In this document: positions 748 to 18,129 of the stretch, in pieces
Position numbering within the stretch: the stretch's first letter is position 1
How the letters are laid out: each line of letters starts with the position of its first letter
DNA from: Opitutales bacterium UBA5694
GTDB lineage: Bacteria > Verrucomicrobiota > Verrucomicrobiia > Opitutales > Opitutaceae
NCBI GenBank assembly: GCA_002420185.1
Contig: DIHO01000019.1
Location: forward strand, 380,324 to 412,323
DNA: 32,000 nt
Direction: 5' to 3'
The notes under the pieces: model-generated
Seen by the model: the letters and a program-made list of their open reading frames with translations, nothing else
Databases searched by the model: none
What the model was told of the DNA's origin: nothing
Made by a program: the position numbers and the translations under genes

Positions 748-2619
748 TTACTTACTTGCCCTGTAGTTGCCGATGGCCTCGGTCACCTTAATTGCCCGGT
801 CGTACACATGAAGGGCATTAACTCTTCCCTTTAAGCTCTTCGCGACTGTCCAATGGCTGGCACCATTCAGGTCATGTAGCTGTGGATTTAAACGACCCCA
901 TCCGAATCGCCGCTGGTCACCACCATCATTCAATAATCCATCTACGACAAAGAGGATGACATTTGGGCCACCATCAACGATTATGCTGACATGGTGTTCT
1001 TGATTCAGTCGTGTAGTTATCGGATCACTACTCCAAGAATTCACCATCCGCCCGTCGCACATGGAGAACTCGAGAGAACTATCATCGCCGGTCTCTAACC
1101 AAAATCCCTTGCCCCATTTGTCACGGCCATCCACCAGCATTTGCCCGGGAGTCAGGTCCTTCAGCTTGAACGAAACCTCAATGGTTAGACCCGCGCCCGT
1201 ATCTTTACCAGCCTTGTCTGCCCGTTCTGAGCGCACGTAGAATGGATCAAACTTAACCGCCTTTATTTGATGACCTACCGTTCGGTTATTTAAATCCCAT
1301 GATGCAACCAAACCATTCTCACAGCGCTCACTAATGAATTCCTGATTCCACAGTAGCTCGATTAATGATGAATCCAGTTCATGCACTCGTGCCAAATCCT
1401 TCTGCGTCTCTGTAATGAAGTATTTCCCACCCTCCTCAATTAGGTCGGGATAGCTCATCCGAATCATGGGATCCTTGTCAAAGAGCAGGATCTCCGGCTG
1501 GCTCCAACTGATTATCTTGCCATTTGCCCCATCTTGTTCAACGCCACCCAGCACCCAAGCGGGATTGCGATCACGATAGGCGACCGTTCTCCTGTCGGGT
1601 TGCTCCCGTAGCCACTCGCCTCCGTGATTGTGGTACCAGTACAGATATTTTCCATTTTCACATCTCCAGGCAAAATTCGCCGCCCGAGGATTCTTCACCC
1701 TACGGCCATTACCGTAGCGCATGTATTGTGGTGGTTCCCATGTGTGCCCCCCATCACGGCTGTATGTATTGACTGGATGACCGTCGATTGTCCGGTAAAC
1801 GCAATAAATGGATCCATCGCTCAAAACCGAATAGCTTTGTTCACTTGCTATCGGCCCGCCTCCTTCCGGTGTGCGTAAACCGATGTCTCCATCCGGAAGG
1901 GTTTCCCATTTTGCTAGGGCAGGATCATCAGCGGTTAGCAAATCTTTGCTCTTGAGAAGCACTCCCTCATTGGAAGTGAAGAAACCTTCTCCAAAATTAC
2001 CCACTTTGATAAGCGGTACATAGGCTACTCCCTTAAGAATAAATGCCTTACCAACATTCCAATGGAAACGGATTTTCCCACCGTAAACATTCTGCCGATC
2101 TATTTCAGTCTCTCGGACGGGAATAATGAAGCGCTTATCTGACCAGCTTTTCCCATTATCATCACTGTATTTAAAAACATAATACCCGAAAGAATCGACC
2201 CGCGTAATGTTTTTGCTACTGGATGTGTCTGACGGATCCCGTTTAAGACTCCGGATATTGTCCGCATTGTAATTATAAAAGACGAACAATCGTCCATTGG
2301 GAGCTTTCAAAGGTACCGCATAAGACGCCTCCGGGCCTTCAGGGGATTCCACCTCCACCAAGTCCTGCCATGACTTCCCCTGATCAAAGCTTCGCTGAGT
2401 TGTGATATGCTGGGTATCTGCACCCTCCTTTCCCATAGCTGTTGTTATGACTACCATCCATGCACCATCATCCGTCCTTACAACATAAGGCTGGTCTGAA
2501 TAGCTCCTGTTGGGGATTCCACTACCGTTTAGAATATCCCGCCAGTCCGTATCAGCTCGTGCGGATTGAGAGCTGATGGATAATGACAGGGTTAATAATA
2601 AATGGACTACCTCTTTCAT
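748..2619 (-). CDS. Secreted BNR/sialidase-like glycoside hydrolase with a C-terminal LamG (concanavalin-like) domain
   Basis: 623-aa ORF with an N-terminal signal peptide. Three Asp-box/BNR motifs are present (FDQGKSWQD, SDDNGKSWSD, SRDGGHTWE). The C-terminal ~170 aa has a LamG-like pattern (GLTIEVSFKL...HHVSIIVDG...LFVVDGLL...LHVYDRAI). Confidence 0.8.
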   Translation of the reverse strand: MKEVVHLLLTLSLSISSQSARADTDWRDILNGSGIPNRSYSDQPYVVRTDDGAWMVVITTAMGKEGADTQHITTQRSFDQGKSWQDLVEVESPEGPEASYAVPLKAPNGRLFVFYNYNADNIRSLKRDPSDTSSSKNITRVDSFGYYVFKYSDDNGKSWSDKRFIIPVRETEIDRQNVYGGKIRFHWNVGKAFILKGVAYVPLIKVGNFGEGFFTSNEGVLLKSKDLLTADDPALAKWETLPDGDIGLRTPEGGGPIASEQSYSVLSDGSIYCVYRTIDGHPVNTYSRDGGHTWEPPQYMRYGNGRRVKNPRAANFAWRCENGKYLYWYHNHGGEWLREQPDRRTVAYRDRNPAWVLGGVEQDGANGKIISWSQPEILLFDKDPMIRMSYPDLIEEGGKYFITETQKDLARVHELDSSLIELLWNQEFISERCENGLVASWDLNNRTVGHQIKAVKFDPFYVRSERADKAGKDTGAGLTIEVSFKLKDLTPGQMLVDGRDKWGKGFWLETGDDSSLEFSMCDGRMVNSWSSDPITTRLNQEHHVSIIVDGGPNVILFVVDGLLNDGGDQRRFGWGRLNPQLHDLNGASHWTVAKSLKGRVNALHVYDRAIKVTEAIGNYRASK

Positions 2620-4430: not shown

Positions 4431-4672
4431 TTACTCGTTACTGCTTTTGACGATCTACAGAAATATGCATAACTAGCTTCGATAGGTAGCCAAACACCTG
4501 CTTTGTTTACAATAAATCTGACTTGGTTAAATTGACAAGCAAATCATTTGTAATAAAGAAACGATTCACAGCCTAGGTAGGGTTGTGGTGTGAAAGGCGG
4601 CTAAAATCGAAACTAGTTACGGCACCCCGGAACTTTCCCCTACACAAATACATCAACTGAAATTTTAATTTA

Positions 4673-5545
4673 ATGAAAAGAACAGCACTTGTCACAGGAT
4701 CCAATCGAGGAATCGGCCTAGCTACTGTCATAAAGCTCGCTTGCCACGGGCTTAAGGTATATGCAGGAATGCGAGATCCGGAGACCAAATCAAAAAACCT
4801 TCTTCGTTCTATCTCAGGCGATGACTTAGACGTGGATGTTGTAGAACTCGATGTTAATCATGAAGCATCCGTCAAACGGTGTTTTGCTTCAATTGAGTCC
4901 TCAGGGGAAAAAGTAGACATCTTAATTAATAATGCTGGAATCGAGAGACGAGGATCGGTTGAAAAATGTCCTATCTCAACTTTCGAGGAAGTAATGAATA
5001 CGAATTATCTGGGACCCATTCGTTGCATTCAGGCAGCTTTACCGAATATGAAAAAAAGTGGTACAGGATTGATAGTAAATATCACTTCTGTAGCGGGCAA
5101 GGTGGCCGCTTCACCGCTTGCACCTTACACAGCATCTAAATTTGCTTTGGAGGCACTCTCAGACTGCCTCGCCCAGGAGGTACTGCCGCATGGCGTCAAA
5201 GTGGCGATAATCGAGCCCGGGATAATCGCGACAGACATGGCTGCTGACATAACCAAGGCAGAATACGATCCTGACTACCCACAGCAAAATAGGATGGCGG
5301 CCATGTTCGTAGAATCTCTCAAAAGCCCAGCATCGACTCAAATTGTAGCTGACGCTATAGTGGAGATCGTGGCTGGTAAAAGGGAAGGTTTACGGCATCC
5401 AGTTGGGCCAGATGCTATCCCGTTTCTTGAATGGAGAGAAAGCAAGTCAGACTCCGAGTGGGCGAATTGGCATAACGTCACTGACGAAGAGTGGTGCGAG
5501 TCGCTGGCAAAAGACTTTGGAATGAGCGTCAAATTAAGTGGCTAG
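4673..5545 (+). CDS. Short-chain dehydrogenase/reductase (SDR) family oxidoreductase
   Basis: N-terminal TGSNRGIGLA (TGxxxGxG dinucleotide-binding motif), NNAG motif, and the catalytic S...YxxxK (YTASK). It ends 40 nt upstream of the TIR gene on the same strand. Confidence 0.85.
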   Translation: MKRTALVTGSNRGIGLATVIKLACHGLKVYAGMRDPETKSKNLLRSISGDDLDVDVVELDVNHEASVKRCFASIESSGEKVDILINNAGIERRGSVEKCPISTFEEVMNTNYLGPIRCIQAALPNMKKSGTGLIVNITSVAGKVAASPLAPYTASKFALEALSDCLAQEVLPHGVKVAIIEPGIIATDMAADITKAEYDPDYPQQNRMAAMFVESLKSPASTQIVADAIVEIVAGKREGLRHPVGPDAIPFLEWRESKSDSEWANWHNVTDEEWCESLAKDFGMSVKLSG

Positions 5546-5585
5546 AATTTTTTATATGAACCCCAAAATGAAACTTTAGATCATC

Positions 5586-7088
5586 ATGAATGACATTTTT
5601 ATTAGTTACGCACACATTGACGACGAGTCCCTTGATGAGCAACAAAAGGGTTGGATCTCAAAATTTCATAGATCGCTTTCAGTCAAGATAGCCCAATTAA
5701 CAGGAGAACCTCCAAAGATTTGGAGAGATCCAAAGTTGCGAGGGAATGATGTGTTTGATCAGGCGATAGTGAATGAATTTAAGAATTCACGCCTGATGAT
5801 TTCGATACTTACTCCGAGATATGTGAAATCTGAATGGTGCCGGAAGGAAATAACTAATTTCTGTCGCAATGCTGAAGATCAAGGAGGACTCAATGTTGAA
5901 GGTAAATCGAGACTTATTAAAGTTATAAAAACCCCTATTGCTGCCCATTCGAGTGACACCCAGCTACCTGGCATTCTAGGGAGTATTTTGGGTTTTGAAT
6001 TCTTCGAGCTTGATCAAGAAACGGGCCGTGTAGTTGAGTTTGATGAGGCCTTTGGACAAAAGGCGAAACAAAGTTATTATTCTCGTATTTACGATTTAGC
6101 TACGGAGGTAGCCGATGTGCTTGTTGCGTTGGATAACGAGAAAGATGGGGATCAGGAATCCGTGATTCCTGCTCCAGATGAGGATAGCCAAATTGTTTTT
6201 TTGTCTTCGGTCACCTCAGACCTCGAGGAATCTCGTCGCAAAATTTCTCGTGAGCTCGTCGCCCGTGGTCATCAGGTAATAGGTTTAGATCCTTTGATTG
6301 CAGCCTCGGAAAATGCTTTGTCTGAAGCCACTGCAAAAATAAGCGAGGCGGATTGCGTGGTACACCTAGTAGGAGAGAAGTACGGCATCGTCCCTGAAGA
6401 TGCACAATGCTCCATACCTGAAATGCAATTGAATGCATCTGCCGAGCGTGCCTCAATCGATCCAAGCTTTAGGAGATTCGTTTGGATGCCAAGATCAGTG
6501 AATCCAACCGATCCCAGGCAAGTTACCTTTCTTCATGGTTTAATGGAGGACCCAAACCGTCAAAAGGGCGCAGAGATGCTTGAGGATACTTTGGATAATT
6601 TTAGAGACTACATTGTAGAAAAACTGCGTGTCCCGATACCCATTAGCACCCCGGCTGAAACGTCAATGCCGGATAGTGACGGAACAAAATCCGTTTACTT
6701 AATATACGACCTTCCAGACGAAGAGAACGTTGCGCCCTTGGAGGACTTCTTGTTTGATAATGGCTTGGAGGTTTTGACGCCAAATTTCGATGGTGATGAG
6801 TCAGAGATAAAGGAATCAAATATCGAAAAGCTCAAATCTTGCGATTCCGTCATGATATATTACGGCCAATGCGCTAAGACATGGGTCGATATGAAGCTCA
6901 TGAGCGTAATGAAAGCTCCCGGATATGGCAGGAAGAAGCCTTTTTCAAGCAAGCTCGTCTTCCTGGCACCGCCTTTTGATAGAAGGAAAATGCGATTCAG
7001 GAGCAACTTGGCTTCGGTAATAACTCAAGCGGACGAAGAATTTTCAGCGAAGGACCTAGAAATCGCTTTAGAAGAGCTAACGAAATAA
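5586..7088 (+). CDS. Triple-module TIR-like protein: N-terminal TIR domain, DUF4062-like module, and a third TIR/DUF4062-like alpha/beta module
   Basis: Module 1 (aa 1-~185) has DIFISYAHID...ISILTPRYVKSEWCRKEI, the classic bacterial TIR signature including the SxWCxxE glutamate (E88, nt 5847-5849). Module 2 (aa ~202-345) has IVFLSSVTSDLEESRRKISRELVARGHQV...ADCVVHLVGEKYG, which matches the DUF4062 pattern. Module 3 (aa ~368-500) has SVYLIYDLPDEE...CDSVMIYYG. Confidence 0.8.
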   Translation: MNDIFISYAHIDDESLDEQQKGWISKFHRSLSVKIAQLTGEPPKIWRDPKLRGNDVFDQAIVNEFKNSRLMISILTPRYVKSEWCRKEITNFCRNAEDQGGLNVEGKSRLIKVIKTPIAAHSSDTQLPGILGSILGFEFFELDQETGRVVEFDEAFGQKAKQSYYSRIYDLATEVADVLVALDNEKDGDQESVIPAPDEDSQIVFLSSVTSDLEESRRKISRELVARGHQVIGLDPLIAASENALSEATAKISEADCVVHLVGEKYGIVPEDAQCSIPEMQLNASAERASIDPSFRRFVWMPRSVNPTDPRQVTFLHGLMEDPNRQKGAEMLEDTLDNFRDYIVEKLRVPIPISTPAETSMPDSDGTKSVYLIYDLPDEENVAPLEDFLFDNGLEVLTPNFDGDESEIKESNIEKLKSCDSVMIYYGQCAKTWVDMKLMSVMKAPGYGRKKPFSSKLVFLAPPFDRRKMRFRSNLASVITQADEEFSAKDLEIALEELTK

Positions 7089-7100
7089 CCCTTCACGATC

Positions 7101-10100
7101 ATGAATAAAGAAGATTCTCAAAACCCTTTCCCTGGTTTGCGCCCTTTTTATTTTGATGATAGCTATCTCTTTTTTGGAAGGGATGCTCAGATAACGGAAC
7201 TTGCTAGTCGATTGCGTAAAAACAAATTCCTGGCTGTTGTTGGAACTTCAGGAAGCGGAAAGTCTTCACTCGTCCGGGCAGGCCTTCTGCCAGAGCTGTT
7301 GAGCGGCACCATGGTTAGTGCGGGTTCGCTTTGGGAAACAGCGATTATGAGACCAGGTGGTGACCCCATAACCAATTTGGCAGAGTCAATCGTACAGGCG
7401 GATCTATATGATCCCGAAGAGGAGGAGATCGTCTCTCAAGTGCGAGCAACCCTTACCAGGAGTGGTCTTGGACTGATAGAAGCCATCAGACAGTGCGACA
7501 TAGAGGAGGGCTCAAATCTTCTTATCGTCGTCGATCAATTTGAGGAGATTTTTCGGTTTAGGGGTAGCGATGACGCTAGTGACGAACAGGCGGCTTTTTT
7601 CGTAAATCTTCTGCTCGAGGCAACAGAACAAAGTGAGCTCCCAATCTATGTCATTATAACGATGCGATCAGATTTCTTGGGGGATTGTAGCCGATTTCCG
7701 AGACTGGCTAATTCTGTCAACGAGGGCGAATTTCTAATACCACGTTTAAATCGGGATCAGAGAAAAGAAGCGATAGAGGGTCCTATAAGAGTAGCAGGAG
7801 GAGAAGTATCCCAGCCTCTCCTGAACCGACTTCTCAATGATATTGGAGACGATCCAGATCAATTGCCCATATTGCAGCATGCCCTTATGCGAACTTGGGG
7901 ATATTGGGCAAAACATAGTGATCGTGATTCTATTGACTTGGATGATTACAGGGCGACCGGCGGCATGACAGAAGCTCTGTCACGTCACGCAAATGAGGTC
8001 TACGCTGCTCTACCAAGCGATGGTCACAGAAAAATAGCGGAAAAGGTTTTTAAGAATCTAACGGAAAAGATTGATCAAGGACGGGGAATTCGAAGGCCTA
8101 TGCCTTTTGGAGAGCTCCTTGAAATTGTCCAATGTGCTGAGGAGGATCTACGTTTAGTCGTAAACGAGTTTCGTGCCGCAGGTAGAACTTTTTTAATGCC
8201 AGCCCCGACGAGGAAAATTGATTTGTCTACCGTAATAGACATTTCGCACGAAAGCCTCATGCGAGTGTGGACTCGTCTCAAGGACTGGGTAGACGATGAA
8301 TCACAGTCGGCAAGGATTTACAGGCGTTTGGCTGACACAGCACAACTTTTTGAAGAAGGAAAAGCGGGCTATTATCGAGATCCGGATCTTCAGATCGCTA
8401 TGTCTTGGAAAGAAGAGGCACAACCGAATCACCTGTGGGCAGATAGGTACTATGAGGGATTCGACAGAGCAATGCAGTTCCTCGACAAAAGCTATGAGGT
8501 CACTAGGCAGGAAGAGATTGATAAAGAGAACGCAAGAATTCGCGAATTAGAATCTGCTAAGGCATTGGCGGCAGAGCAGGAAAAGAGAGCAGCCATTGAA
8601 AAAAGAAGTGCAAAAAGACTCAGAGTTTTGTCAGCTGGACTGGCATTGGCGGGCATTGCCTCTCTCGTTTTCTTAGCGTTTGCAATCAATTCAAAAAACG
8701 AAGTTAGCAATAAGATAAATGAGTTAGCGTCACGAAGTTTTCTTAGGGGACAAGAACTTGAAAAAAGCAAAGACGGTCTCAAGGCCTTGCCTTGGTACCT
8801 CGATGCAGTTGATCTGTCTAAAGGTAATGAATCGCTCAATGCAAAATATTTAAATGCTCTTTCAAATAAGCTTTCTAGTAATTTTATCCTAGAAAAAGGA
8901 ATAAATGTAAAAGACGTCTCGGAGTTGATCATCTCTGAAGACGGAAAGCTACTCGTGATAAATACAAACGCTGGTTTGTTTGGCGCGGAAAACAAGGTCC
9001 ACGTTTACTCATGGCCAGATCTGAGAGAAGTCTGCGAGTTGAAAATCGATGGAGTGATTTTTAAAACCAAGATTTCCCCAGATGGAGGTCATATATTCTC
9101 ATGCTCAAATATTGAATCAAAAGTTTGGAGTGTTTCGGCTGATTCTAAGACTGTTTTTCAAAAACCCTATTTTGGCAGCTTTTCATTCAATCCAAAAAAT
9201 GAAGGTGGATATCATTTGTTTGGATCCTCAGAAGGATTATCTAGAATTGAGAGGGACTTTAGCCAAGAGTCAGTCGTCCATAGCAGGAGAGTTGCTTCAA
9301 CGGCTATATCACCAAACGGGAATCATTATATTTCAATTGAAGAACTAGACCGCGAAACCACTGGTAGCGTGCCAAGTGCAGTCTTCAGAAGGCGATTATT
9401 TAGGTCAGGAGGAGTGCCCTCAAAAATAGTCAGTTTCAGTATTAAAAATGATTCCTTCGAACAAGATTTTGAGAGCGAGTTTGAAGGTTTCATCAGTCAA
9501 ATTATTTTTCCTGATGACTCGCCTGAAGGAATAGCGTTTTTCTCGGCTAGCCAATCTTCTAAACGCTTCACGCAGGTGAACTTCTCAATAGGCGAAGTTT
9601 CTAACGCGGCTCTACTAGATTTCGGTGGTGTGGATCCAGGAGAGCTTCAGATAAAATCAGGAGGTGATAAAGTTCTAGTCGCATCGAGTGTTGGCTCATT
9701 GCAAATACTCGAGAAGCAGCCAACTGGTTGGGAATTAGTTCAAAATTTTCCCCTCAGCGAGAATAGCCCCTCCGATATTAGTAGTAATGGATTGGACGTC
9801 CTGACGTCCAACTCAAATGGATCAATACAATTGTTGTCGGCAATTTCTGGAGATCAATTTGCCGACTCCTTGTATGGGAAAGTGGCGATTAAGGACGCGA
9901 TCTTCGGGCCATCTGATGATAAGGTCATTGTAGCACTTGAGAATGGTGAAGTTAAAGTTTTTTCTATACCCATCGGTAAAGTACGAGTTACTGGAACACC
10001 GTACCAATCTTCCGTCAGCGGTGGGAGGGGTCCTTGGCTAGCCGTCGATGGAATTGTACAATCGACTCGTTCTCCACGAACTCGATCTTCAGATGACTTT

Positions 10101-11975
10101 GAACCGACCTCCATGTCGACGGAGCTCGGAGACGCAAATCCGATGTGGCGTCTAAATTTTGACAGGGTAAGCAAGGTAACTGATGCGAAGATTTGGAATC
10201 GTCCCTCCGCGGGCGTAACCCCAAATCCAAATGATATGTTCATACGACGGCTTAAAAATTTTAAAGTGTCTTTAAAGTTGGATGGCGAGACCGTTTGGGA
10301 AAAATTGTTTCTCCACAAGAAAAGTGATAGTCCCCCATATCCTTACCATGAGGTGGAGTTTGATGACGGAGTGATGGCCGACTGTTTCGAAATAACCATA
10401 ACCGATGTAAACGAAAACAATGAAAAGATCCTCTCTCTTTCTGAGGTCGAAGTTTTTGCTATTTCTGAAAATAAAAATGTCAAATTCGGTGAAGATCTAT
10501 CTCAATATGTAAGGGAAGTCTCTAGTCATGAGTTACTTGCAGACGGAAGAGTCGTTTTATCGAGTTCTAGCATAGAAGCGAAATCATTCGCAAGTTACAC
10601 TAGCAAAGGGGGCGAAGAAGAAAGAATTCTTTCGAAATTTTTAAAAGCTTACGATTCACAAAACTGGACCCTTTGTGTACGGTATTTTTCACAACTTGGC
10701 CTAAATCGGGAAAATTCTGAAGTGGTCCGTAAAGCTATTATCTGCTATAGGAGCTTAGGTTCGTTCGAGGATTCCCAAAAGCTCCTAGCTAATTACTTAA
10801 GTAGTAGTTCACCAGATTATAAATTCATCGTGAATGAATTGTGTAACTTAGATCAATTTGGTTTGGACGTTGGGAGCCTTGTTACAAAGGTGTTATCTAC
10901 GGAGTCGTTTTACCAAGATAAATTAGCGTGCAAAAGCATGAGCCTATTTTTGGTTTCTAGCGACAAATACCAGCTAAGCCAGAGATTACACGATTGGTTG
11001 GAGGATGAATACAACAGAAGAGATTCATACGCTACATTGAGGCCTTCCGAGAATTATGATCTGGAAAACGGAATTACAATTGAAGGCTGGTTTAGATATG
11101 ATGCGCGTGGTTTTTACAGTTGGGCCCCTCGACTTATCAACAAATTCGGCCAAGGAGGCTCCGATGGGTACTGCCTGACTGTTGCTGGCTCCGGAAAAGT
11201 GCTTTTTGAGCTCAATAACAGCAGCACGGGTGAAGCAGCCTACCATTCTGTCGATTCACCCGAATCTGGACAGTGGTTTCATTTAGCAGCAACTTGGGAT
11301 ATACAAACTAAACAAATGCGTATGTACATCGACGGTGTCGAGAAAGGTGATCCATTAGAGTTTCAAGGTCCGATTGGCCTTACAAGCGTACCTCTCGGTT
11401 TCGCAACAAACAATCTAAGAGCGACCCGCATAGATGCCTCATATTCCGAAATAAGGATCTGGAATTACGCAAGAAGTAGTGAACAAATTAGAGAAAATAA
11501 AAACAAGCGGTTAGATGCTGAGCTAGACGGACTTGCTTTTTACGGATCTTTTTCTGATGAAAACGAGATCAGAAAGTTGCCGTGGAGTAAAATTGTGAAT
11601 CCATCAATTCAATCCACCAAGCAGCTCCCTTTCGGAAGTGAAACAGATTATCTCGCTCTTACCGAATCCAATAGTTTTACGGAGAACTTATGGTTGGATT
11701 TGATTCTCGCAGAAAGCTACTTTCAGCGAGATGAAATGAGCGAAGCATTAAACATTCTGACAGCTTCAGATTTTAGATTTAGCAGCCGAGTTTACAATCC
11801 AGCTAGATTAGGGTTAATATCTAAATATCTTACTTTCATAGACGACGGAAATGAGGTATTCCGGGAAAGGATGAGCAGCTTGTTGCAGCAGGGCATAACT
11901 GAAATGAACAAACCCTCCGAAGGGATGCTCCCGTCTTGGGTACCACAAGTGAGAAAGTTAATACAGCCTTTTTAA
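7101..11975 (+). CDS. Transmembrane STAND NTPase (nSTAND-type P-loop) with a beta-propeller-like, discoidin-like, helical-repeat and LamG C-terminal region
   Basis: The N-terminus is NPFPGLRPFYFDDSYLFFGRD...FLAVVGTSGSGKSSLVRAGLLPEL (Walker A). It also has LLIVVDQFEEIF (Walker B), ITMRSDF, LPILQHALMRTW and ISHESLMRVW, the signature of the nSTAND/WD40-associated NTPase family. A coiled coil spans aa ~465-508. A TM helix VLSAGLALAGIASLVFLAFAI (aa 509-529) is preceded by KRSAKRLR. Degenerate WD40-like repeats cover aa ~600-960. A discoidin/F5-8-C-like region covers aa ~975-1122 (MWRLNF...KVSLKLDGETVWE...LSLSEVEVFA). A LamG domain covers aa ~1315-1465 (ITIEGWFRY...GQWFHLAATWD...MRMYIDGVE...IRIWNYARS). 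Confidence 0.85.
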   Translation: MNKEDSQNPFPGLRPFYFDDSYLFFGRDAQITELASRLRKNKFLAVVGTSGSGKSSLVRAGLLPELLSGTMVSAGSLWETAIMRPGGDPITNLAESIVQADLYDPEEEEIVSQVRATLTRSGLGLIEAIRQCDIEEGSNLLIVVDQFEEIFRFRGSDDASDEQAAFFVNLLLEATEQSELPIYVIITMRSDFLGDCSRFPRLANSVNEGEFLIPRLNRDQRKEAIEGPIRVAGGEVSQPLLNRLLNDIGDDPDQLPILQHALMRTWGYWAKHSDRDSIDLDDYRATGGMTEALSRHANEVYAALPSDGHRKIAEKVFKNLTEKIDQGRGIRRPMPFGELLEIVQCAEEDLRLVVNEFRAAGRTFLMPAPTRKIDLSTVIDISHESLMRVWTRLKDWVDDESQSARIYRRLADTAQLFEEGKAGYYRDPDLQIAMSWKEEAQPNHLWADRYYEGFDRAMQFLDKSYEVTRQEEIDKENARIRELESAKALAAEQEKRAAIEKRSAKRLRVLSAGLALAGIASLVFLAFAINSKNEVSNKINELASRSFLRGQELEKSKDGLKALPWYLDAVDLSKGNESLNAKYLNALSNKLSSNFILEKGINVKDVSELIISEDGKLLVINTNAGLFGAENKVHVYSWPDLREVCELKIDGVIFKTKISPDGGHIFSCSNIESKVWSVSADSKTVFQKPYFGSFSFNPKNEGGYHLFGSSEGLSRIERDFSQESVVHSRRVASTAISPNGNHYISIEELDRETTGSVPSAVFRRRLFRSGGVPSKIVSFSIKNDSFEQDFESEFEGFISQIIFPDDSPEGIAFFSASQSSKRFTQVNFSIGEVSNAALLDFGGVDPGELQIKSGGDKVLVASSVGSLQILEKQPTGWELVQNFPLSENSPSDISSNGLDVLTSNSNGSIQLLSAISGDQFADSLYGKVAIKDAIFGPSDDKVIVALENGEVKVFSIPIGKVRVTGTPYQSSVSGGRGPWLAVDGIVQSTRSPRTRSSDDFEPTSMSTELGDANPMWRLNFDRVSKVTDAKIWNRPSAGVTPNPNDMFIRRLKNFKVSLKLDGETVWEKLFLHKKSDSPPYPYHEVEFDDGVMADCFEITITDVNENNEKILSLSEVEVFAISENKNVKFGEDLSQYVREVSSHELLADGRVVLSSSSIEAKSFASYTSKGGEEERILSKFLKAYDSQNWTLCVRYFSQLGLNRENSEVVRKAIICYRSLGSFEDSQKLLANYLSSSSPDYKFIVNELCNLDQFGLDVGSLVTKVLSTESFYQDKLACKSMSLFLVSSDKYQLSQRLHDWLEDEYNRRDSYATLRPSENYDLENGITIEGWFRYDARGFYSWAPRLINKFGQGGSDGYCLTVAGSGKVLFELNNSSTGEAAYHSVDSPESGQWFHLAATWDIQTKQMRMYIDGVEKGDPLEFQGPIGLTSVPLGFATNNLRATRIDASYSEIRIWNYARSSEQIRENKNKRLDAELDGLAFYGSFSDENEIRKLPWSKIVNPSIQSTKQLPFGSETDYLALTESNSFTENLWLDLILAESYFQRDEMSEALNILTASDFRFSSRVYNPARLGLISKYLTFIDDGNEVFRERMSSLLQQGITEMNKPSEGMLPSWVPQVRKLIQPF
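7242..7265 (+). other. Walker A / P-loop (GTSGSGKS) of the STAND NTPase
   Basis: aa 48-55 of the 7101..11975 ORF. Walker B hhhhDQFEE is at aa 140-149 (nt 7518-7547). Confidence 0.85.
8625..8687 (+). other. Single predicted transmembrane helix inside the STAND protein
   Basis: 21 uninterrupted hydrophobic/small residues (VLSAGLALAGIASLVFLAFAI) with a basic cluster (KRSAKRLR) on the N-terminal side. By the positive-inside rule the NTPase sits in the cytoplasm and the ~1090-aa C-terminal region sits outside. Confidence 0.6.
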
Positions 11976-12005
11976 TCATTTTTTTGGAATAAAATGAAAA
12001 TCACG

Positions 12006-12020
12006 GGCCTATCTTAGGCC
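12006..12020 (+). other. Intercistronic stem-loop (GGCCTA-tct-TAGGCC)
   Basis: Perfect 6-bp inverted repeat with a 3-nt loop, between the STAND stop (11975) and the next start (12028). No U-tract follows, so it is not a canonical terminator. Confidence 0.35.
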
Positions 12021-12027
12021 AGTAAAT

Positions 12028-13716
12028 ATGGGTTCATCTCCAGTTAGATTTGCGATAGTTTCTTTAGGTTTATTGGCCCTTTACCTTGGTTGGATCGGTG
12101 CTAACAGCTTATCGGCAGATGATTCCTTCTTAGATTCTTTGTATAAAGCAGTGAAGTTATTCGTGCTTGAGGATTCAGGTATGTTTCGACTCGAGCATCC
12201 CGTAACCCTCGAAATTGCCCGTTGGTTGGCCCCTATGACAACGATTTCTAGCATTTTTGCCGCTGCTAGCACTTATCTTAGGCAGTTATCGGATTTCATC
12301 AGGCTCGTGTTCTGTAGTGATCATACTATAGTCCTTGGAGCTAGTGCCGAGGCCTTGCACCTAATTGCAGACTTAAGTGCATCCAAGACTGGGAAAATCG
12401 TTGTGATTGAAAAAAACGCGAACGCTCCGAACCTGCAGGAATTAAAAAAGTATCGGTCTCTCGTAATCATAGGAGATTTCGAATCTAGGGCTAACTTAGA
12501 AAAAGCAAGAGTATATAAAGCAAAATCTGTAATTAGCCTCACTAGCAAAAACGAAAAAAATCTTTCTGTTATACTGCGGGCAAGTCAGCTGATTCCTGAT
12601 CAAAGGTTCGATAATCCGGTAAAGTTTTATCTGCCAATAAAAGGCTTTTTTCACACAGAATCTCTACAGAGCAGTGGAATTTGTGATTATCCAAGTGCAA
12701 GGAAGAAAAAAATCATAGTAGTCAACCTAGTTAGAAATCGTGCTCGATGTTTATTCTCAAAACATCCAATCGAGCTTGATCGATTAGGAAAAGTAAAGGA
12801 GCCAATTGTCATTTTTGATACCTACAATGATCTCGTTCAGGCTTTTATAGTACATACTGCTGAGGTTGGTCATTACCCTAATAACGTTAAGGCAACTATT
12901 TATATCGTAAGTCCTGACGCCGAAATAAAAGTTGAGAAATTAGCCTATCATTTTCCAGCCGTGAGAGATTGTGTTAATCTTCAAAGCGTGTCGCTCAAAA
13001 GCGGTGACGATGCGGTAGACACTATCGCGGAACTAATCGAGAGCAAGCAGGGCAATTACAATAAATCAGTATTCTTAATGGAATCTTCGCCTCCGTCAGA
13101 AATGATCGAGGCAATAAGAATCAAGGAGAAAATCACGATCGATGCCTCAGTCACATTTGTGATACCTGAGTTAGATAATGGATTACTACCAAAGGGCATC
13201 GATTGTATAAAGAGTGTTGAGACTTTAAAGGATAGCTTGAGCGGTGCAGCAGTCTTTATGGCTTCTTTAGAAGATTCGGCGAAAAAACTGCACGAGGCAT
13301 GGTATAATCAAAATGACATGCTAATTAAGGCCGCAGAGACCGAGGGTATGGTTGATAAGGCTTCAGCACTGAAAAGCAAACCAGCGTTTCTGCCCTGGGA
13401 GGACCTTAGTGATGAACAGAGGAAGCCAAGCATTTCTCTAGCTGATCATGCAGAGATAAAGAGGCGATTCATTATGTCCGCAATGGGAAAGAAAGAAGGT
13501 AGCTCCATCGACGCTAAGTTGATAGATGAAAGCGTGATGGATGCACTTTGCCGGATGGAGCACAACAGATGGATGTCAACCTTAAGGATGATGGGATGGA
13601 ATTATGGCTCGAAACGGAATGACGATAAGAAAATACACAACAATTTGGTCCCATATGACGAGCTTGATGCCGATGCGAAATCCTTCGACAAGACTATGAT
13701 CGAAAATTTGCATTAG
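12028..13716 (+). CDS. Membrane protein with a 2-TM channel-like core, a TrkA-N (RCK-type Rossmann) domain and C-terminal RyR-domain repeats
   Basis: TM1 is FAIVSLGLLALYLGWIGA. A pore-helix-like segment DSLYKAVKLFVLEDSG follows, with no TVGYG filter. TM2 is LEIARWLAPMTTISSIFAAA. The Rossmann region is HTIVLGASAEALHLIADL...KIVVIEKN...LVIIGDFES...AKSVISLT. Two C-terminal RyR-like repeats are present (KKLHEAWYNQ...PWEDLSDEQRKPSISLADH and CRMEHNRWMSTLRMMGWNYG...HNNLVPYDELDADAKSFDK). Confidence 0.75.
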   Translation: MGSSPVRFAIVSLGLLALYLGWIGANSLSADDSFLDSLYKAVKLFVLEDSGMFRLEHPVTLEIARWLAPMTTISSIFAAASTYLRQLSDFIRLVFCSDHTIVLGASAEALHLIADLSASKTGKIVVIEKNANAPNLQELKKYRSLVIIGDFESRANLEKARVYKAKSVISLTSKNEKNLSVILRASQLIPDQRFDNPVKFYLPIKGFFHTESLQSSGICDYPSARKKKIIVVNLVRNRARCLFSKHPIELDRLGKVKEPIVIFDTYNDLVQAFIVHTAEVGHYPNNVKATIYIVSPDAEIKVEKLAYHFPAVRDCVNLQSVSLKSGDDAVDTIAELIESKQGNYNKSVFLMESSPPSEMIEAIRIKEKITIDASVTFVIPELDNGLLPKGIDCIKSVETLKDSLSGAAVFMASLEDSAKKLHEAWYNQNDMLIKAAETEGMVDKASALKSKPAFLPWEDLSDEQRKPSISLADHAEIKRRFIMSAMGKKEGSSIDAKLIDESVMDALCRMEHNRWMSTLRMMGWNYGSKRNDDKKIHNNLVPYDELDADAKSFDKTMIENLH

Positions 13717-14170
13717 AAAATTGAGTCACTTGGTGCTTTTTGGCCGTCGAAAAGTTTAAAGAGTTAAAAAGTATATAGGTACTAGGAGTGTGACTTAGGG
13801 TTTAGCAGTGGATCAGTGTGAGACCTTAAAAAATGGATACAAGAAAGCAAACAGAGCTTCAGTTAAGGGTACATCCCGTTTATCTACGTAAATAGAATAA
13901 GTTGGGTGCTTGGCACTCCAACTGGTTTTAACTTTGCATAGCCCGGGGGAGGATATAATCGAATAACTATTAGAGCGATAGAGCTTTTGCGTCGTAACGT
14001 TAATCGAGCCGAGATCATAGAATCACTTTTGAAGGCAATCTGGGCGATTTCAATGCGATTACTGATGTACCGGTAGTAGCGGTAGGGCATTGTGCGATCT
14101 TGCCGACTGGTCTCGACTATAGACCCTTTCGCATTCTTACTAAGGAAGGTGTCATGCTGTGACAAGGGAT

Positions 14171-15725: not shown

Positions 15726-16106
15726 TTAGTGCTTTTGGTACTTGTCGGAGGGTGGCGACGTCAATTGGTCATGGCAAGTGGCAAAACGAGCCGTTGGACT
15801 GGAACGATGATTCCTCGTTCGCCTACCCATCTCACAAAGTTGTGCATAAAGCGTGGATGTGCGTAAGGCAGCCTTGCTGCAGCACGCTTCCCCCTTGTAG
15901 TCGGCGTTCCATGACATATGGTACCGTGGCCTGCCGGCCTTGATGTACTTGTTGACGTTGAGGACGTAGTCACCGTGAAGCCAGTCTCCTTCAAAATTGT
16001 ACCTAGGGCCATATAATCTAGCAGACGACTCGCCATCGTCTTCCTCCGAGCCATGGGAGAGGTCCAAGTCTTCAATGAGGGTGAGCATTAGCTCATCGTC
16101 TTTCAA
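15726..16106 (-). CDS. Hypothetical protein (weak call)
   Basis: 126-aa ORF with an acidic N-terminus and no recognisable motif. It is preferred over the overlapping 15761..16075 frame only because its composition looks more protein-like. Confidence 0.3.
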   Translation of the reverse strand: MKDDELMLTLIEDLDLSHGSEEDDGESSARLYGPRYNFEGDWLHGDYVLNVNKYIKAGRPRYHMSWNADYKGEACCSKAALRTSTLYAQLCEMGRRTRNHRSSPTARFATCHDQLTSPPSDKYQKH

Positions 16107-16430
16107 CTCTTTCGAGGTTTTTGAGCAGCAGACTGATAGAAAGGAAAAAAGCAGTGCAGCGTATAAACCGTGTGAGATTTAAGCGGGGTCAAGGTGAATT
16201 TAGCAAGGCAAATTCTAAAACTAAGTTTGCCCAAAATGGCATAAACTGAGGCAAAATTGAAGTATTTTGGCTACTTTTGGGCTAAATGCCCCTTTTGGTA
16301 GAGATGAAAGTGGCTCATGGTGTGCCAAGAGGGTAATCTCTGATCGCAAAAGGGAGAATATTTTTAAAAAACGGAGGACAACGCTTGAATTGAACATTCA
16401 GCAATTAGGGGTGTCAGTGTCCGCTTAAGC

Positions 16431-16853
16431 ATGCAAAGAAATTCCTTCTCTCGGTCGGTCTCTGTAATAATTGTTACCGTTCTCATTTATCAGTCTGCGA
16501 TTGTAGCTCCGGCGGTCAACATAGCTCTCCCAATTGATGCAGCCGCAAGAATGTTGAGGTTCATTTGGCCCATTTTCTTTGCCCTTATTGGTCTGCTCGG
16601 GCTGGTAAATGCGATATTATCAAAAAAACACAAAGCAGCTGCTGCGGTAAATTTAGCCACGGTGTTTTCTATGGCGACCTGCTACGTGTTAGTTCCGGTA
16701 ATAAATGAGGCGAGAGACAGTGGAAATCTAGATGCCTGGAAAGCACTACATGCGGTTACAGTAGCCCTGACTTTTTTGTCTTTGGTTCTGCAACTTGGAT
16801 ATACTTTAAGATGGTACAAATCAGCTCCGGAGCGGGAAAAAAGATCGGTATAG
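16431..16853 (+). CDS. Small integral membrane protein (about four TM helices, DUF4149/TMEM205-like)
   Basis: 140 aa with four hydrophobic spans (VSVIIVTVLIYQSAIVAPAV, FIWPIFFALIGLLGLVNAIL, AAAAVNLATVFSMATCYVLVPVI, LHAVTVALTFLSLVLQLGY). Confidence 0.6.
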   Translation: MQRNSFSRSVSVIIVTVLIYQSAIVAPAVNIALPIDAAARMLRFIWPIFFALIGLLGLVNAILSKKHKAAAAVNLATVFSMATCYVLVPVINEARDSGNLDAWKALHAVTVALTFLSLVLQLGYTLRWYKSAPEREKRSV

Positions 16854-17075
16854 TCGCGAGAATTACGTGAAATCCAATTCAGCCTTTTTACTCTAAGGGT
16901 ATAGATTAAGATTGTGAGCTCCCATTTCCCCTGATCAGTAAAATGGGTTTCAATGCATTGGGGAACCAACTGTCAGCTGCGCCGACTTTATTTGTCAGTT
17001 GGGCAAGCTCACTTCCCCTTCACCTTGAGTTTACTCGCGAAGTCTTGCTTACACCCGGAAACATGGAGACATTCG

Positions 17076-18008
17076 CTAATGTGATTGAAAAACGGCAAGT
17101 TGAGGCAAGTGGTCACTCAACGCAAACGACTCGAGGTCGTTTGTATTCAGCCGAAAGGCTCCTTCAAACAGCGGTTTCGATTCAACGACCCGATTTGCGA
17201 TTGGTCCAGCGGCCATAGCGTAATCAATTCTCGTCTGGGGATCGTCAGACTTCATGGTGAGGCCTTCTCCTACGCCAACCTCGGCGAAGGTATCCACAAA
17301 ACCAGCGTCAACCCAAAGCTTGTATTCGTCCGTTTCGGGCCGGTGATTCAGATCGCCAATTAGAAGCATCGACCGCCCGGCATCTATATCCGGTTTCATC
17401 GATTCGATCATAGCACGGATTTCTTTGAGGCGAACCGTTGGGTCGGCTCCTGGGTAAAGATGTGCCGAATGGATAATCAGCGGCTCACCGCTCGACAACT
17501 TAATCTTGGCTTGCCCCCAGTGTCGCGTGAACAACTCTTTCGGTCTCTCGCCTTTCATGGGAGCATTCTGTGAATCAGTGATCTCAAATTTACTCAGCAG
17601 TGTTCCCGGCCAATTGCCGCCGCTGGGGAATCGAACGTGGTTCATTCCCAAAAGTTCGGCAACTTTTTGCGTTATTTCCTCTTCAGGTGATTCGGAGAAG
17701 TTGATGAGGTCGGGGTCGTGTAGAGCGAGCTCCATAGCCAGTCGATTTGCCATCTGGCCCTCTGCAACCGCCCGCTTCGCCAACGGTCGGTCGTTTGGCC
17801 AACCCTTGCATTTGTAAATATTGTAAGCGATAACTCGAAGCGGCTTCGGTCCTGATTCATCGGCAAATAAGTTTGAGCTAACTGCGGCAAGACTAGTTCC
17901 GAGTGCTGTGCAAAAGTTTCGGCGTGAGATTGTAATTGGCATCCCCAAGGTAGTGTTTACCAAATCGAAAATAAGCAATTTGCTTTTCCAAGTTTGCCAT
18001 AAATTCAA
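17076..18008 (-). CDS. Exported endonuclease/exonuclease/phosphatase (EEP) family protein
   Basis: Twin-arginine-type signal (SRRNFCTALGTSLAAV). EEP motifs LRVIAYNI, LLIGDLNH, RIDYAM and SDHLP. The biological start is probably the internal Met (MPITISRRNF, ~17942) rather than the TTG at 18008. Confidence 0.8.
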   Translation of the reverse strand: MNLWQTWKSKLLIFDLVNTTLGMPITISRRNFCTALGTSLAAVSSNLFADESGPKPLRVIAYNIYKCKGWPNDRPLAKRAVAEGQMANRLAMELALHDPDLINFSESPEEEITQKVAELLGMNHVRFPSGGNWPGTLLSKFEITDSQNAPMKGERPKELFTRHWGQAKIKLSSGEPLIIHSAHLYPGADPTVRLKEIRAMIESMKPDIDAGRSMLLIGDLNHRPETDEYKLWVDAGFVDTFAEVGVGEGLTMKSDDPQTRIDYAMAAGPIANRVVESKPLFEGAFRLNTNDLESFALSDHLPQLAVFQSH

Positions 18009-18129
18009 TTATTCCGATTTGATTAGAAGGAGATAGTTTTCACCTTCCTGTTGAAATTTATATCATTTACCAAAAGGGAATAGGGGCGGGCCACACAAGG
18101 CGAGAATTATCGTGTATTCGGTCGAATGG

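Follow-up and report, generated by a model that had tools for sequence, protein, structure and literature searches.

Three tandem TIR-fold modules, only the first with a catalytic-type glutamate, in a widespread bacterial protein encoded next to an nSTAND1 NTPase

The protein analyzed here is encoded in a 32,000-nucleotide stretch of the genome of Opitutales bacterium UBA5694 (Verrucomicrobiota; assembly GCA_002420185.1, contig DIHO01000019.1, positions 380,324 to 412,323 of the forward strand), which we refer to as the window. The product of the gene, which we call TIR3, is composed of three tandem TIR-fold domains, and only the first of them keeps the catalytic-type Glu of TIR NADases. This had been proposed in a reading of the DNA made without database searches (the sequence-only reading), and was confirmed here by profile searches, structure prediction and the comparison of homologues. 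We consider it somewhat probable that TIR3 provides the output and adaptor subunit in a system of two or three genes that resembles NLR receptors (nucleotide-binding proteins with leucine-rich repeats), in which the sensor is a signal transduction ATPase with numerous domains (STAND).

Results

Architecture of the TIR3 Protein

The open reading frame that had been taken to encode one three-module polypeptide is present, and the strings by which its modules had been described were found in its translation: DIFISYAHID (aa 3-12) and YVKSEWCRKEI (aa 79-89) in module 1, IVFLSSVTSDLEESRR (aa 203-218) and HLVGEKYG (aa 260-267) in module 2, and VYLIYDLPDEE (aa 370-380) and SVMIYYG (aa 421-427) in module 3. 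The extents of the modules and of the associated genes are given in Table 1. In the whole-protein AlphaFold2 (AF2) model, built with 33 homologues (predicted local distance difference test score, pLDDT, 81; predicted template modelling score, pTM, 0.42), separate beta-alpha-beta domains spanned residues 2-186, 203-347 and 369-499, and the linkers between them were disordered. Foldseek searches with the whole-protein model returned mostly spurious multi-domain alignments (root-mean-square deviation 13-25 Å), and their TIR matches could not be assigned to a module; a model of module 3 only was used in their place. The sequence-only reading had named profile searches and structure prediction as the test of the fold of modules 2 and 3, and these showed TIR/DUF4062-type folds.

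Table 1. Positions of TIR3, its modules and associated features in the window
Feature	Position	Strand	Basis and remarks
TIR3 gene (three-module protein, 500 aa)	5586..7088	+	Open reading frame and translation; homologues
Module 1, canonical TIR, aa 1-186	5586..6143	+	Pfam TIR_2, TIR; long insertion after helix alphaC
Module 2, DUF4062/NIR-type TIR-like, aa 200-348	6183..6629	+	Pfam DUF4062, KpSwz match, hhalign
Module 3, TIR/NDT fold, aa 366-500	6681..7085	+	AF2 model, Foldseek
nSTAND1 NTPase, 1,624 aa	7101..11975	+	Pfam nSTAND1, Laminin_G_3; start 12 nt after TIR3 stop codon
Channel-like protein, 562 aa (facultative third gene)	12028..13716	+	Pfam TrkA_N, RyR; GsuK/MthK profile
Segment 90% DNA-identical to L022 4033-5049 (Opitutaceae metagenome-assembled genome)	4655..5671	+	blastn, tblastn

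Module 1 Carries a Complete Catalytic-Type Motif

Module 1 matched Pfam TIR_2 over aa 4-96 (E 2.6e-14, 54.2 bits, cut-off 28) and Pfam TIR (E 4e-5, 23.8 bits, cut-off 21.3). The Glu of the WCxxEL motif is the catalytic residue in plant TIR NADases. As the family profile (YvkSeWCnkEl) aligned E88 with the catalytic Glu of Cat1 (YLKSDWCWDEL), L6 (YADSKWCLMEL) and RUN1 (YARSRWCLDEL), E88 occupies the catalytic position, just as had been claimed, in an S-x-W-C-x-x-E-[LI] motif on helix alphaC (helix 83-98 of the AF2 model; GAA codon at 5847-5849). The conservation counts given here and below refer, unless stated otherwise, to 202 homologues of 36-100% identity from several phyla. Among them, E88, C85, S82 and W46 were each present in 202/202, and W84 in 200/202. 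The best NCBIfam match of module 1 was to FxsC_Nterm (NF040588; aa 5-118, E 6.5e-14), but at 52 bits it was far under the family cut-off of 130, and membership in the FxsC TIR-like family was rejected. The window showed no genes of an FxSxx-COOH system.

Module 2 Is a DUF4062 Domain with Gln in Place of the Catalytic Glu

The view that module 2 follows the DUF4062 pattern was borne out by a Pfam DUF4062 match over aa 204-280 (E 5e-12, 46.3 bits, cut-off 24.7), by a match of its profile to the cryo-EM structure of KpSwz (E 9e-5), and by an hhalign comparison with seven canonical DUF4062 domains (probability 97.5%, E 4.8e-12, 143 columns). Scanned alone, module 2 also gave a weak TIR_2 match (E 0.0095). 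With canonical DUF4062 it shares the motifs T-x-D-L-x-x-E-R, G-x-R-Y-G and S-x-x-E-x-[E/Q]-x-x-x-A, while the DUF4062-specific Q/W/E motif described for helix alphaB of Evangelion is absent, the corresponding stretch of module 2 (aa ~241-254) being variable. The sequence-only reading had spoken of DUF4062 as a TIR-related module. The likeness to TIR domains holds, but three 2026 preprints (including 10.64898/2026.05.01.722283 and 10.64898/2026.09.04.749371) make DUF4062 a TIR-like NADase family itself, with its own catalytic Glu, which is needed for defence. Thus, the missing WCxxE motif would not by itself prove module 2 inactive, and the decisive fact is the identity of the residue at the DUF4062 catalytic position.

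The deposited KpSwz chain is an E97A mutant, and a wild-type Vibrio homologue was aligned to locate the Glu. The alignment of SFTEKAF of KpSwz with SYTEKEF of the Vibrio homologue pins the catalytic residue to the second Glu of S-x-T-E-x-E, in agreement with Eva01, in which it is E87 of the 'acidic-SYT' motif; in PsAvs2 it is E108. Opposite the KpSwz E97 column, with one extra loop residue ahead of S276, stands Q281 (codon 6426-6428), so that the motif S276-x-x-E-x-Q281 of module 2 corresponds to S-x-T-E-x-E of DUF4062, its catalytic Glu being replaced by Gln. Q281 and S276 were found in 202/202 homologues and E271 in 201/202, and Gln was also present at position 281 in 70/72 representatives with and without an N-terminal extension. 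As NADase activity or defence is lost when Gln is put in place of the Glu in PsAvs2, Vulcan, VstA and human TEP1 (10.64898/2026.09.04.749371), module 2, a DUF4062 domain, appears to carry an inactivating substitution naturally. Two residues that could have substituted for the catalytic Glu were rejected: the Y-G-x-x-P-E motif of E271 is shared by a DUF4062-TPR protein (L088) in which S-x-T-E-x-E is apparently still present downstream, and position 279 (Glu in the window protein) is variable among the homologues.

Module 3 Has a TIR/NDT Fold and Belongs to No Curated Family Tested

Module 3 gave zero Pfam matches at E up to 10, and its profile matched nothing significant among PDB sequences; it belongs to no curated sequence family tested in these two collections. 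The AF2 model of module 3 alone (28 homologues; pLDDT 92, pTM 0.88) matched nucleoside 2-deoxyribosyltransferase (NDT), RRS1, RPS4, SARM1, TIR-STING, the SPARTA TIR and DNPH1 with a Foldseek probability of 1.00. The E value for the NDT structure 2a0k was 6e-5, the best template modelling (TM) scores were those to the RRS1 TIR (0.68-0.70), and CMP N-glycosidase was also matched. Judged by this model, module 3 has the fold of the TIR/NDT superfamily, in keeping with the earlier description of it as a further flavodoxin-like unit.

The motif W433-V-x-M-K437 of module 3 mirrors W84-C-x-x-E88 of module 1, and K437 (codon 6894-6896) lies on helix 431-442 of the whole-protein model, suggesting that Lys437 stands where the catalytic Glu would be. 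W433 was present in 202/202 homologues, K437 in 199/202, and K468, which belongs with R449 and R470 to a basic C-terminal patch, in 202/202. Modules 2 and 3 had been said to show no WCxxE-type motif. A catalytic Glu is indeed missing from both, but recognisable remnants of the motif persist in S276-x-x-E-x-Q281 and W433-V-x-M-K437. The near-invariance of Q281, S276, W433 and K437 indicates that the inactive sites are under purifying selection, with no sign of decay. The only near-invariant position at which the TIR3 copy of the window deviates is codon 412 (6819-6821), which encodes Asn in helix alphaB of module 3; 199/202 homologues have His there.

Profile-profile comparison of module 1 with modules 2 or 3 gave nothing usable, and hhalign of module 2 with module 3 gave a collinear, weak alignment (E 0.06-0.11) that pairs K437 with Q281. 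The three modules are thus no recent duplicates of one another, and an alignment as weak as that of modules 2 and 3 is no proof, as far as sequence goes, that K437 is the equivalent residue.

TIR3 Is Widespread, and Modules 2 and 3 Behave as Its Constant Part

More than 1,500 full-length homologues of TIR3 were found, annotated at most as 'TIR domain-containing protein', and 222 TIR3 loci were present in one-genome-per-species collections. They come mainly from Verrucomicrobiota and Bacteroidota, and also from Acidobacteriota and others; cultured hosts in Bacteroidota include Olivibacter sitiensis, Sediminibacterium ginsengisoli and Algoriphagus. The three-module arrangement had been called unusual. 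It is undescribed in the literature searched, in which no paper with this architecture turned up, yet it is widespread rather than rare. A 'tandem TIR' paper on Dictyostelium proved to be unrelated to TIR3. Often, several TIR3 paralogues are encoded in one genome. Divergent TIR3-nSTAND1 cassettes share a genome at loci L013, L016 and L019, and likewise at L020, L025, L029 and L033 of the metagenome-assembled genome SP274. Locus L013 contains a head-to-head pair of TIR3 genes (8028-9590, minus strand, and 10001-11500, plus strand), whose products share 41% and 52% identity with the window protein.

With the profile of module 3, 1,925 matches were obtained among 1.84 billion representative proteins, and module 3 was C-terminal in nearly all of the 150 matches listed. 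Among the relatives were proteins of 600-1,070 aa in which the three-module unit comes after a Ser/Thr kinase, an adenylate/guanylate cyclase or additional TIR domains. We compared 40 representatives without an extension with 32 whose N-terminus is extended by 100 aa or more; the nine extensions scanned with Pfam were kinases (P0131, P0132, P0142, P0145, P0149, P0153) or cyclases (P0129, P0138, P0141), loci L092-L095 being among the fused-relative loci. E88 was kept in 39/40 proteins without an extension and in 18/32 of those with one (lost in 14/32), and W84 in 31/40 and 5/32, respectively. The residues of the inactive modules behaved differently: Q281 was kept in 38/40 and 32/32, S276 in 39/40 and 32/32, and W433 in 39/40 and 32/32. 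A kinase-fused and a cyclase-fused gene that were checked both had an nSTAND1-WD40 gene directly downstream. As the extended relatives often lose E88, keep Q281, S276 and W433, and still adjoin nSTAND1, module 1 seems to behave as a dispensable catalytic output, and modules 2 and 3 as a constant part accompanying the STAND partner. One relative with extra TIR_2 domains ahead of the unit, P0234, is encoded in an EAD9/iSTAND/AAA/VWA operon, not beside nSTAND1.

The TIR3 Gene Is Linked to an nSTAND1 NTPase with a Variable Sensor

The nSTAND1 domain of the protein encoded downstream of TIR3 (Pfam E 7e-98, 329 bits) begins already at aa 9, indicating that the partner carries no effector domain of its own. 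The layout would be that of an NLR-like system with the effector supplied in trans. Toward the C-terminus, at aa 1308-1463, the partner has a Laminin_G_3/ConA-like domain (E 1e-21). The linkage is not peculiar to the window: of 80 TIR3 genes followed by at least 600 nt of sequence, 78 had an nSTAND1 NTPase gene downstream on the same strand, in 73 cases within 250 nt. Between loci, the nSTAND1 NTPase domain is 45-80% identical and the C-terminal part differs, with Laminin_G_3 (window, L004), Ank repeats, TPR or WD40 as the sensor domain. The nSTAND1 conflict systems have been defined by an nSTAND1-clade NTPase, variable repeat or sensor domains and linked effectors (Kaur et al., PMC8195603), and the window cassette fits this description in its nSTAND1 domain, varied sensors and linkage. 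In two partial metagenomic proteins, P0196 (324 aa) and P0275 (242 aa), module 3 runs straight into nSTAND1.

At two loci of Chitinophagales/Chitinophagaceae (L061 and L072, TIR3 at ~9986-11490), a channel gene and TIR3 were found with no nSTAND1 gene downstream; in L061, TIR3 is followed by genes of a CNNM/CorC transporter and a hexapeptide transferase. Loci of this type would be channel-TIR3 pairs without a sensor.

The 5' side of the window cassette has a close relative in L022, which shares with it a segment containing an SDR gene, a spacer and the initial 86 nt of TIR3; the region upstream of this segment is unrelated to L022. Past the segment, the TIR3 proteins of the window and L022 are only 45% identical, and this drop, from 90% identity in DNA, makes it likely that the 5' end of the TIR3 gene contains a recombination boundary. 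The GC content is 41-43% in the STAND and channel genes (window ~8000-14000), as compared to 47-55% in the flanks, which is consistent with horizontal acquisition. Taken together, the low GC content, the divergent paralogues and the boundary with L022 would fit a mobile, fast-evolving conflict locus.

The Third Gene Encodes an RCK-RyR Channel-like Protein

The protein encoded by the third gene of the window cassette begins with a first transmembrane helix (TM1), a pore helix, a degenerate filter and a second transmembrane helix (TM2; together aa ~1-90), followed by an RCK/TrkA_N domain (aa 101-192, Pfam E 5e-11) and, at its C-terminus, by an RyR/R12 domain (PF02026, aa ~500-559, E 3e-13, 50.4 bits, cut-off 27.4). 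Its pore is invisible to Pfam alone, which gave no Ion_trans_2 match to the N-terminus. However, a profile of the N-terminal 215 residues matched the PDB chains of GsuK (E 8e-14, query 6-185, chain 16-211) and MthK (E 3e-6, query 12-211, chain 23-215), and both matches were collinear from TM1 to the first RCK domain, by way of the pore helix and TM2. The Rossmann GxGxxG motif is degenerate (GASAEA). In the RyR domain, H512, W515, H537 and D554 were invariant in 10 diverse homologues, and their spacing (3, 25 and 17 residues) is that of H75, W78, H100 and D117 of the phage protein RyDEP, which serve in binding and cleaving 2'cADPR and 3'cADPR, cyclic ADP-ribose isomers made by TIRs, and hold ADP-ribose (ADPR) in the crystal (PMC13232231).

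The channel gene was operonic with TIR3 in 29/70 loci overall, and in 27/35 loci of a mainly Bacteroidota group it lay 3-36 nt upstream of TIR3. Three-gene operons are found in the cultured strains Olivibacter sitiensis DSM 17696 (L047, 8020-14698) and Sediminibacterium ginsengisoli DSM 22335 (L064). Distant channel homologues (20-28% identity) adjoined other TIR-superfamily genes in 3/3 further contexts examined: two DUF4062 proteins in L088, two TIR_2 proteins and a SLOG-type protein in L091, and a DUF4062-STAND-TPR protein and a small stand-alone RyR protein in L099. The word-indexed searches for channel homologues returned 7-10 proteins, which is a lower bound on the family. The small RyR protein of L099 (163 aa; 11115-11606, minus strand) is encoded between the TrkA_N-RyR and DUF4062-STAND-TPR proteins, with a KAP NTPase nearby; it is host-encoded and its size is like that of phage sponges or glycosidases. 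In the literature searched, we found no paper on host RyR-domain channel proteins in such systems. As the RyR domain keeps the ADPR/cADPR-binding residues and recurs beside unrelated TIR and DUF4062 genes, the RCK-RyR protein suggests a new class of effectors for NAD-derived immune signals.

Comparison with Known Systems

By analogy, the cassette may work as a STAND sensor of the NLR/Avs type does whose output is a TIR NADase, possibly in a Thoeris-like manner through a signal receptor. As in Avs (PsAvs2) and plant TNL receptors, which are activated by oligomerisation in the known cases, a STAND NTPase with a variable C-terminal sensor would be combined with a TIR-superfamily output predicted to cleave NAD+. 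In contrast to them, the output comes as a polypeptide of its own, encoded immediately upstream and made of three TIR-fold domains of which two are presumably dead, and the NTPase is of the nSTAND1 clade, lacks an N-terminal effector and has no Avs match in PADLOC. Module 2 is like the DUF4062/NIR NADases (Swarozyc KpSwz, Evangelion Eva01, Vulcan, Vesta and human TEP1) over the whole domain, but it differs from them by the invariant Gln, by the lack of the Q/W/E motif, and by its internal position between two TIR-fold domains instead of one N-terminal to an AUX or STAND region. The pairing of a TIR lacking the catalytic Glu with a competent TIR has a parallel in RPS4/RRS1, RRS1 being also the closest to module 3 by TM-score; however, the partners in TIR3 are covalently joined in one chain, two of them appear dead, they come from different branches of the TIR superfamily, and they are bacterial.

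Similarly to Thoeris (ThsB and ThsA), a TIR enzyme is encoded beside a separate protein with a domain able to bind ADPR-derived signals. Here, however, the trigger would be a STAND NTPase and the candidate receptor is an RyR domain on an RCK channel-like protein instead of SLOG or Macro, and the third gene is facultative. Matches to ThsB were only marginal (PADLOC E 0.0024; Pfam ThsB_TIR 15.9 bits, cut-off 21.2), and there is no SLOG or Macro protein in the cassette. The RyR domain of the third gene, which keeps the His, Trp, His and Asp of phage RyDEP at the same spacing, is not part of a viral counter-defence; it is host-encoded, operonic with a TIR enzyme, and fused to a two-transmembrane pore and RCK, and it may sense, sequester or degrade the nucleotide. 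An RyR domain within a channel-type protein is also found in animal ryanodine receptors. As compared to GsuK, the third gene product has the K+ filter TTLGFGD replaced by LFVLEDSG in the window protein, and an RyR domain added at the C-terminus. With no PADLOC match, marginal ThsB matches, a sub-threshold FxsC_Nterm match, module 2 without its Glu and module 3 without a family, the cassette is a member of no named system among those tested.

Discussion

A working model for the cassette builds on what was observed, namely the identities of the domains, the substituted residues with their conservation, and the linkage of the genes; activation through oligomerisation, NADase activity, the part played by modules 2 and 3, gating of the channel and a function in defence are its inferred elements. 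The nSTAND1 NTPase would sense a cue through its variable C-terminal domain and oligomerise, the oligomer would gather copies of TIR3, and module 1 would form active TIR assemblies that cleave NAD+. Modules 2 and 3, with Gln and Lys in place of Glu, would be a catalytically dead constant part that couples to the STAND partner, templates the TIR assembly, or does both, and in which a pocket for nucleotides may persist. At loci with the third gene, such as that of the window, the product derived from NAD+ (ADPR or a cyclic isomer of it) would attach to the RyR domain and alter the membrane ion flux; at loci without this gene, NAD+ depletion itself would be the output. Among the roles proposed for modules 2 and 3 in the sequence-only reading, that of a constant STAND-coupling or regulatory unit agrees best with the comparative data, since Q281, S276 and W433 are kept in proteins without E88, and since the two fusions of module 3 with nSTAND1 occur; ligand binding by these modules, which it had also suggested, is taken up below. 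More tentatively, the cassette may be a bacterial NAD-signalling system in which a STAND-triggered TIR makes ADPR or a cyclic isomer that gates the RyR/RCK channel, and would then be a prokaryotic counterpart of the animal cADPR-ryanodine receptor axis, with modules 2 and 3 in a 'substrate-trap' coupling or regulatory role. If this is true, the cassette is possibly also an evolutionary relative of that long-debated axis.

Several observations weigh against one or another part of this model. K437 is equated only tentatively with the catalytic Glu, through the motif, the helix register and the weak profile alignment (E 0.06-0.11), and the inter-module orientation is unpredicted, the pTM of the whole-protein AF2 model being 0.42. 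The fusions P0196 and P0275 are fragments from short contigs, and may be artefacts of assembly, gene calling or read-through. The K+ filter of the channel-like protein is degenerate, with LFVLEDSG in the window and F-x-[ML]-x-x-x-D in homologues as compared to T-[VL]-G-[YF]-G-D, the channel gene was found in only 2/35 loci of the Verrucomicrobiota group, and the conserved His/Asp pair could be a sign that the RyR domain degrades the signal instead of sensing it. As to defence, PADLOC gave no significant match for the cassette proteins (best E 0.001-0.005, over short stretches), and the window contains no known defence genes nearby, the neighbours being sulfatases, a BNR protein and beta-lactamase-fold genes. 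A defence role of the cassette is thus only an analogy.

The persistence of the inactive sites can also be read in another way. It is possible, though doubtful, that modules 2 and 3 are mainly sensors of a small molecule (NAD+, ADPR or a related nucleotide) that allosterically switch module 1, as the ARM domain of SARM1 does, STAND coupling being achieved through another surface. The invariant or near-invariant Q281, S276, E271, W433 and K468 are pocket-type motif positions, beyond core residues, a Glu-to-Gln change is the classic way to remove catalysis and keep the shape of the side chain, and the invariant basic patch of module 3 (R449, K468 and R470) would suit phosphates. However, module 2 has not kept the Q/W/E motif specific to DUF4062, and the strict nSTAND1 linkage and the occasional fusion point to a protein-protein role. 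Sensing of this kind would overlap with the coupling role rather than exclude it. We find it improbable that the three modules form an intrachain head-to-tail pseudo-oligomer in which the active site of module 1 is completed, TIR3 being a self-sufficient NADase that the STAND protein restrains or localises. It is established that the active site of a TIR NADase takes shape with the help of neighbouring TIRs, which are required for it (cited in the Swarozyc preprint), and the best TM-scores of module 3 were to RRS1, the non-catalytic partner in the RPS4/RRS1 pair. The AF2 model, though, has independent domains, disordered linkers and no confident inter-domain packing, a constitutive NADase would be toxic, and modules 2 and 3 persist where module 1 decays (kinase and cyclase fusions), so that they would serve something besides module 1.

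Hardly any weight can be given to the idea that all three modules are non-enzymatic scaffolds like the MyD88-type adaptor TIRs, with a structural role for the conserved Glu. Many TIR domains that keep the Glu do have no reported activity, but E88 is present in 202/202 homologues without another output domain and lost in 14/32 proteins with an N-terminal extension, which is the pattern of a catalytic residue, and the full S-x-W-C-x-x-E motif matches that of active NADases. It is likewise unlikely, if by no means to the same degree, that the cassette serves general signal transduction instead of anti-phage defence, with STAND receptors driving an NAD-derived messenger and an ion channel in Verrucomicrobiota and Bacteroidota. 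This would agree with neighbours that are housekeeping or polysaccharide-use genes and form no defence islands, with the lack of a PADLOC match, with relatives whose kinase or cyclase outputs are typical of signalling, and with the several paralogous cassettes per genome. On the other hand, variable sensors on a conserved NTPase, divergent paralogues, low GC content and a recombination boundary are typical of conflict systems, and in the literature, defence has so far been the function of each bacterial combination of TIR, DUF4062 or STAND that has been characterised.

Whichever role modules 2 and 3 play, TIR3 represents a large family, annotated so far only as 'TIR domain-containing protein', in which one active-type TIR is permanently tethered to two apparently inactive TIR-fold domains. 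It is a natural system in which to ask what non-catalytic TIRs do, a question that is the same for plant RRS1-type and animal adaptor TIRs. The 2026 preprints show DUF4062/NIR only as an active NADase effector, and module 2 of TIR3 would be a conserved non-catalytic variant of it. The proposed link between cyclic ADP-ribose and the RyR domain is directly testable in a simple bacterial three-gene operon, which can be had from strains in culture, Olivibacter sitiensis DSM 17696 being one of them.

Additional Features of the Gene Neighbourhoods

The Laminin_G_3 (ConA-like) domain was found twice in the window, in the STAND protein and in a BNR/sialidase-like protein (748-2619, minus strand). In L003, a locus of Verrucomicrobiota, an open reading frame of 166 aa with no family assigned separates the TIR3 and STAND genes, and a protein with RyR, TPR-S and guanylate cyclase domains is encoded two genes downstream of nSTAND1 (15810-18053, plus strand).

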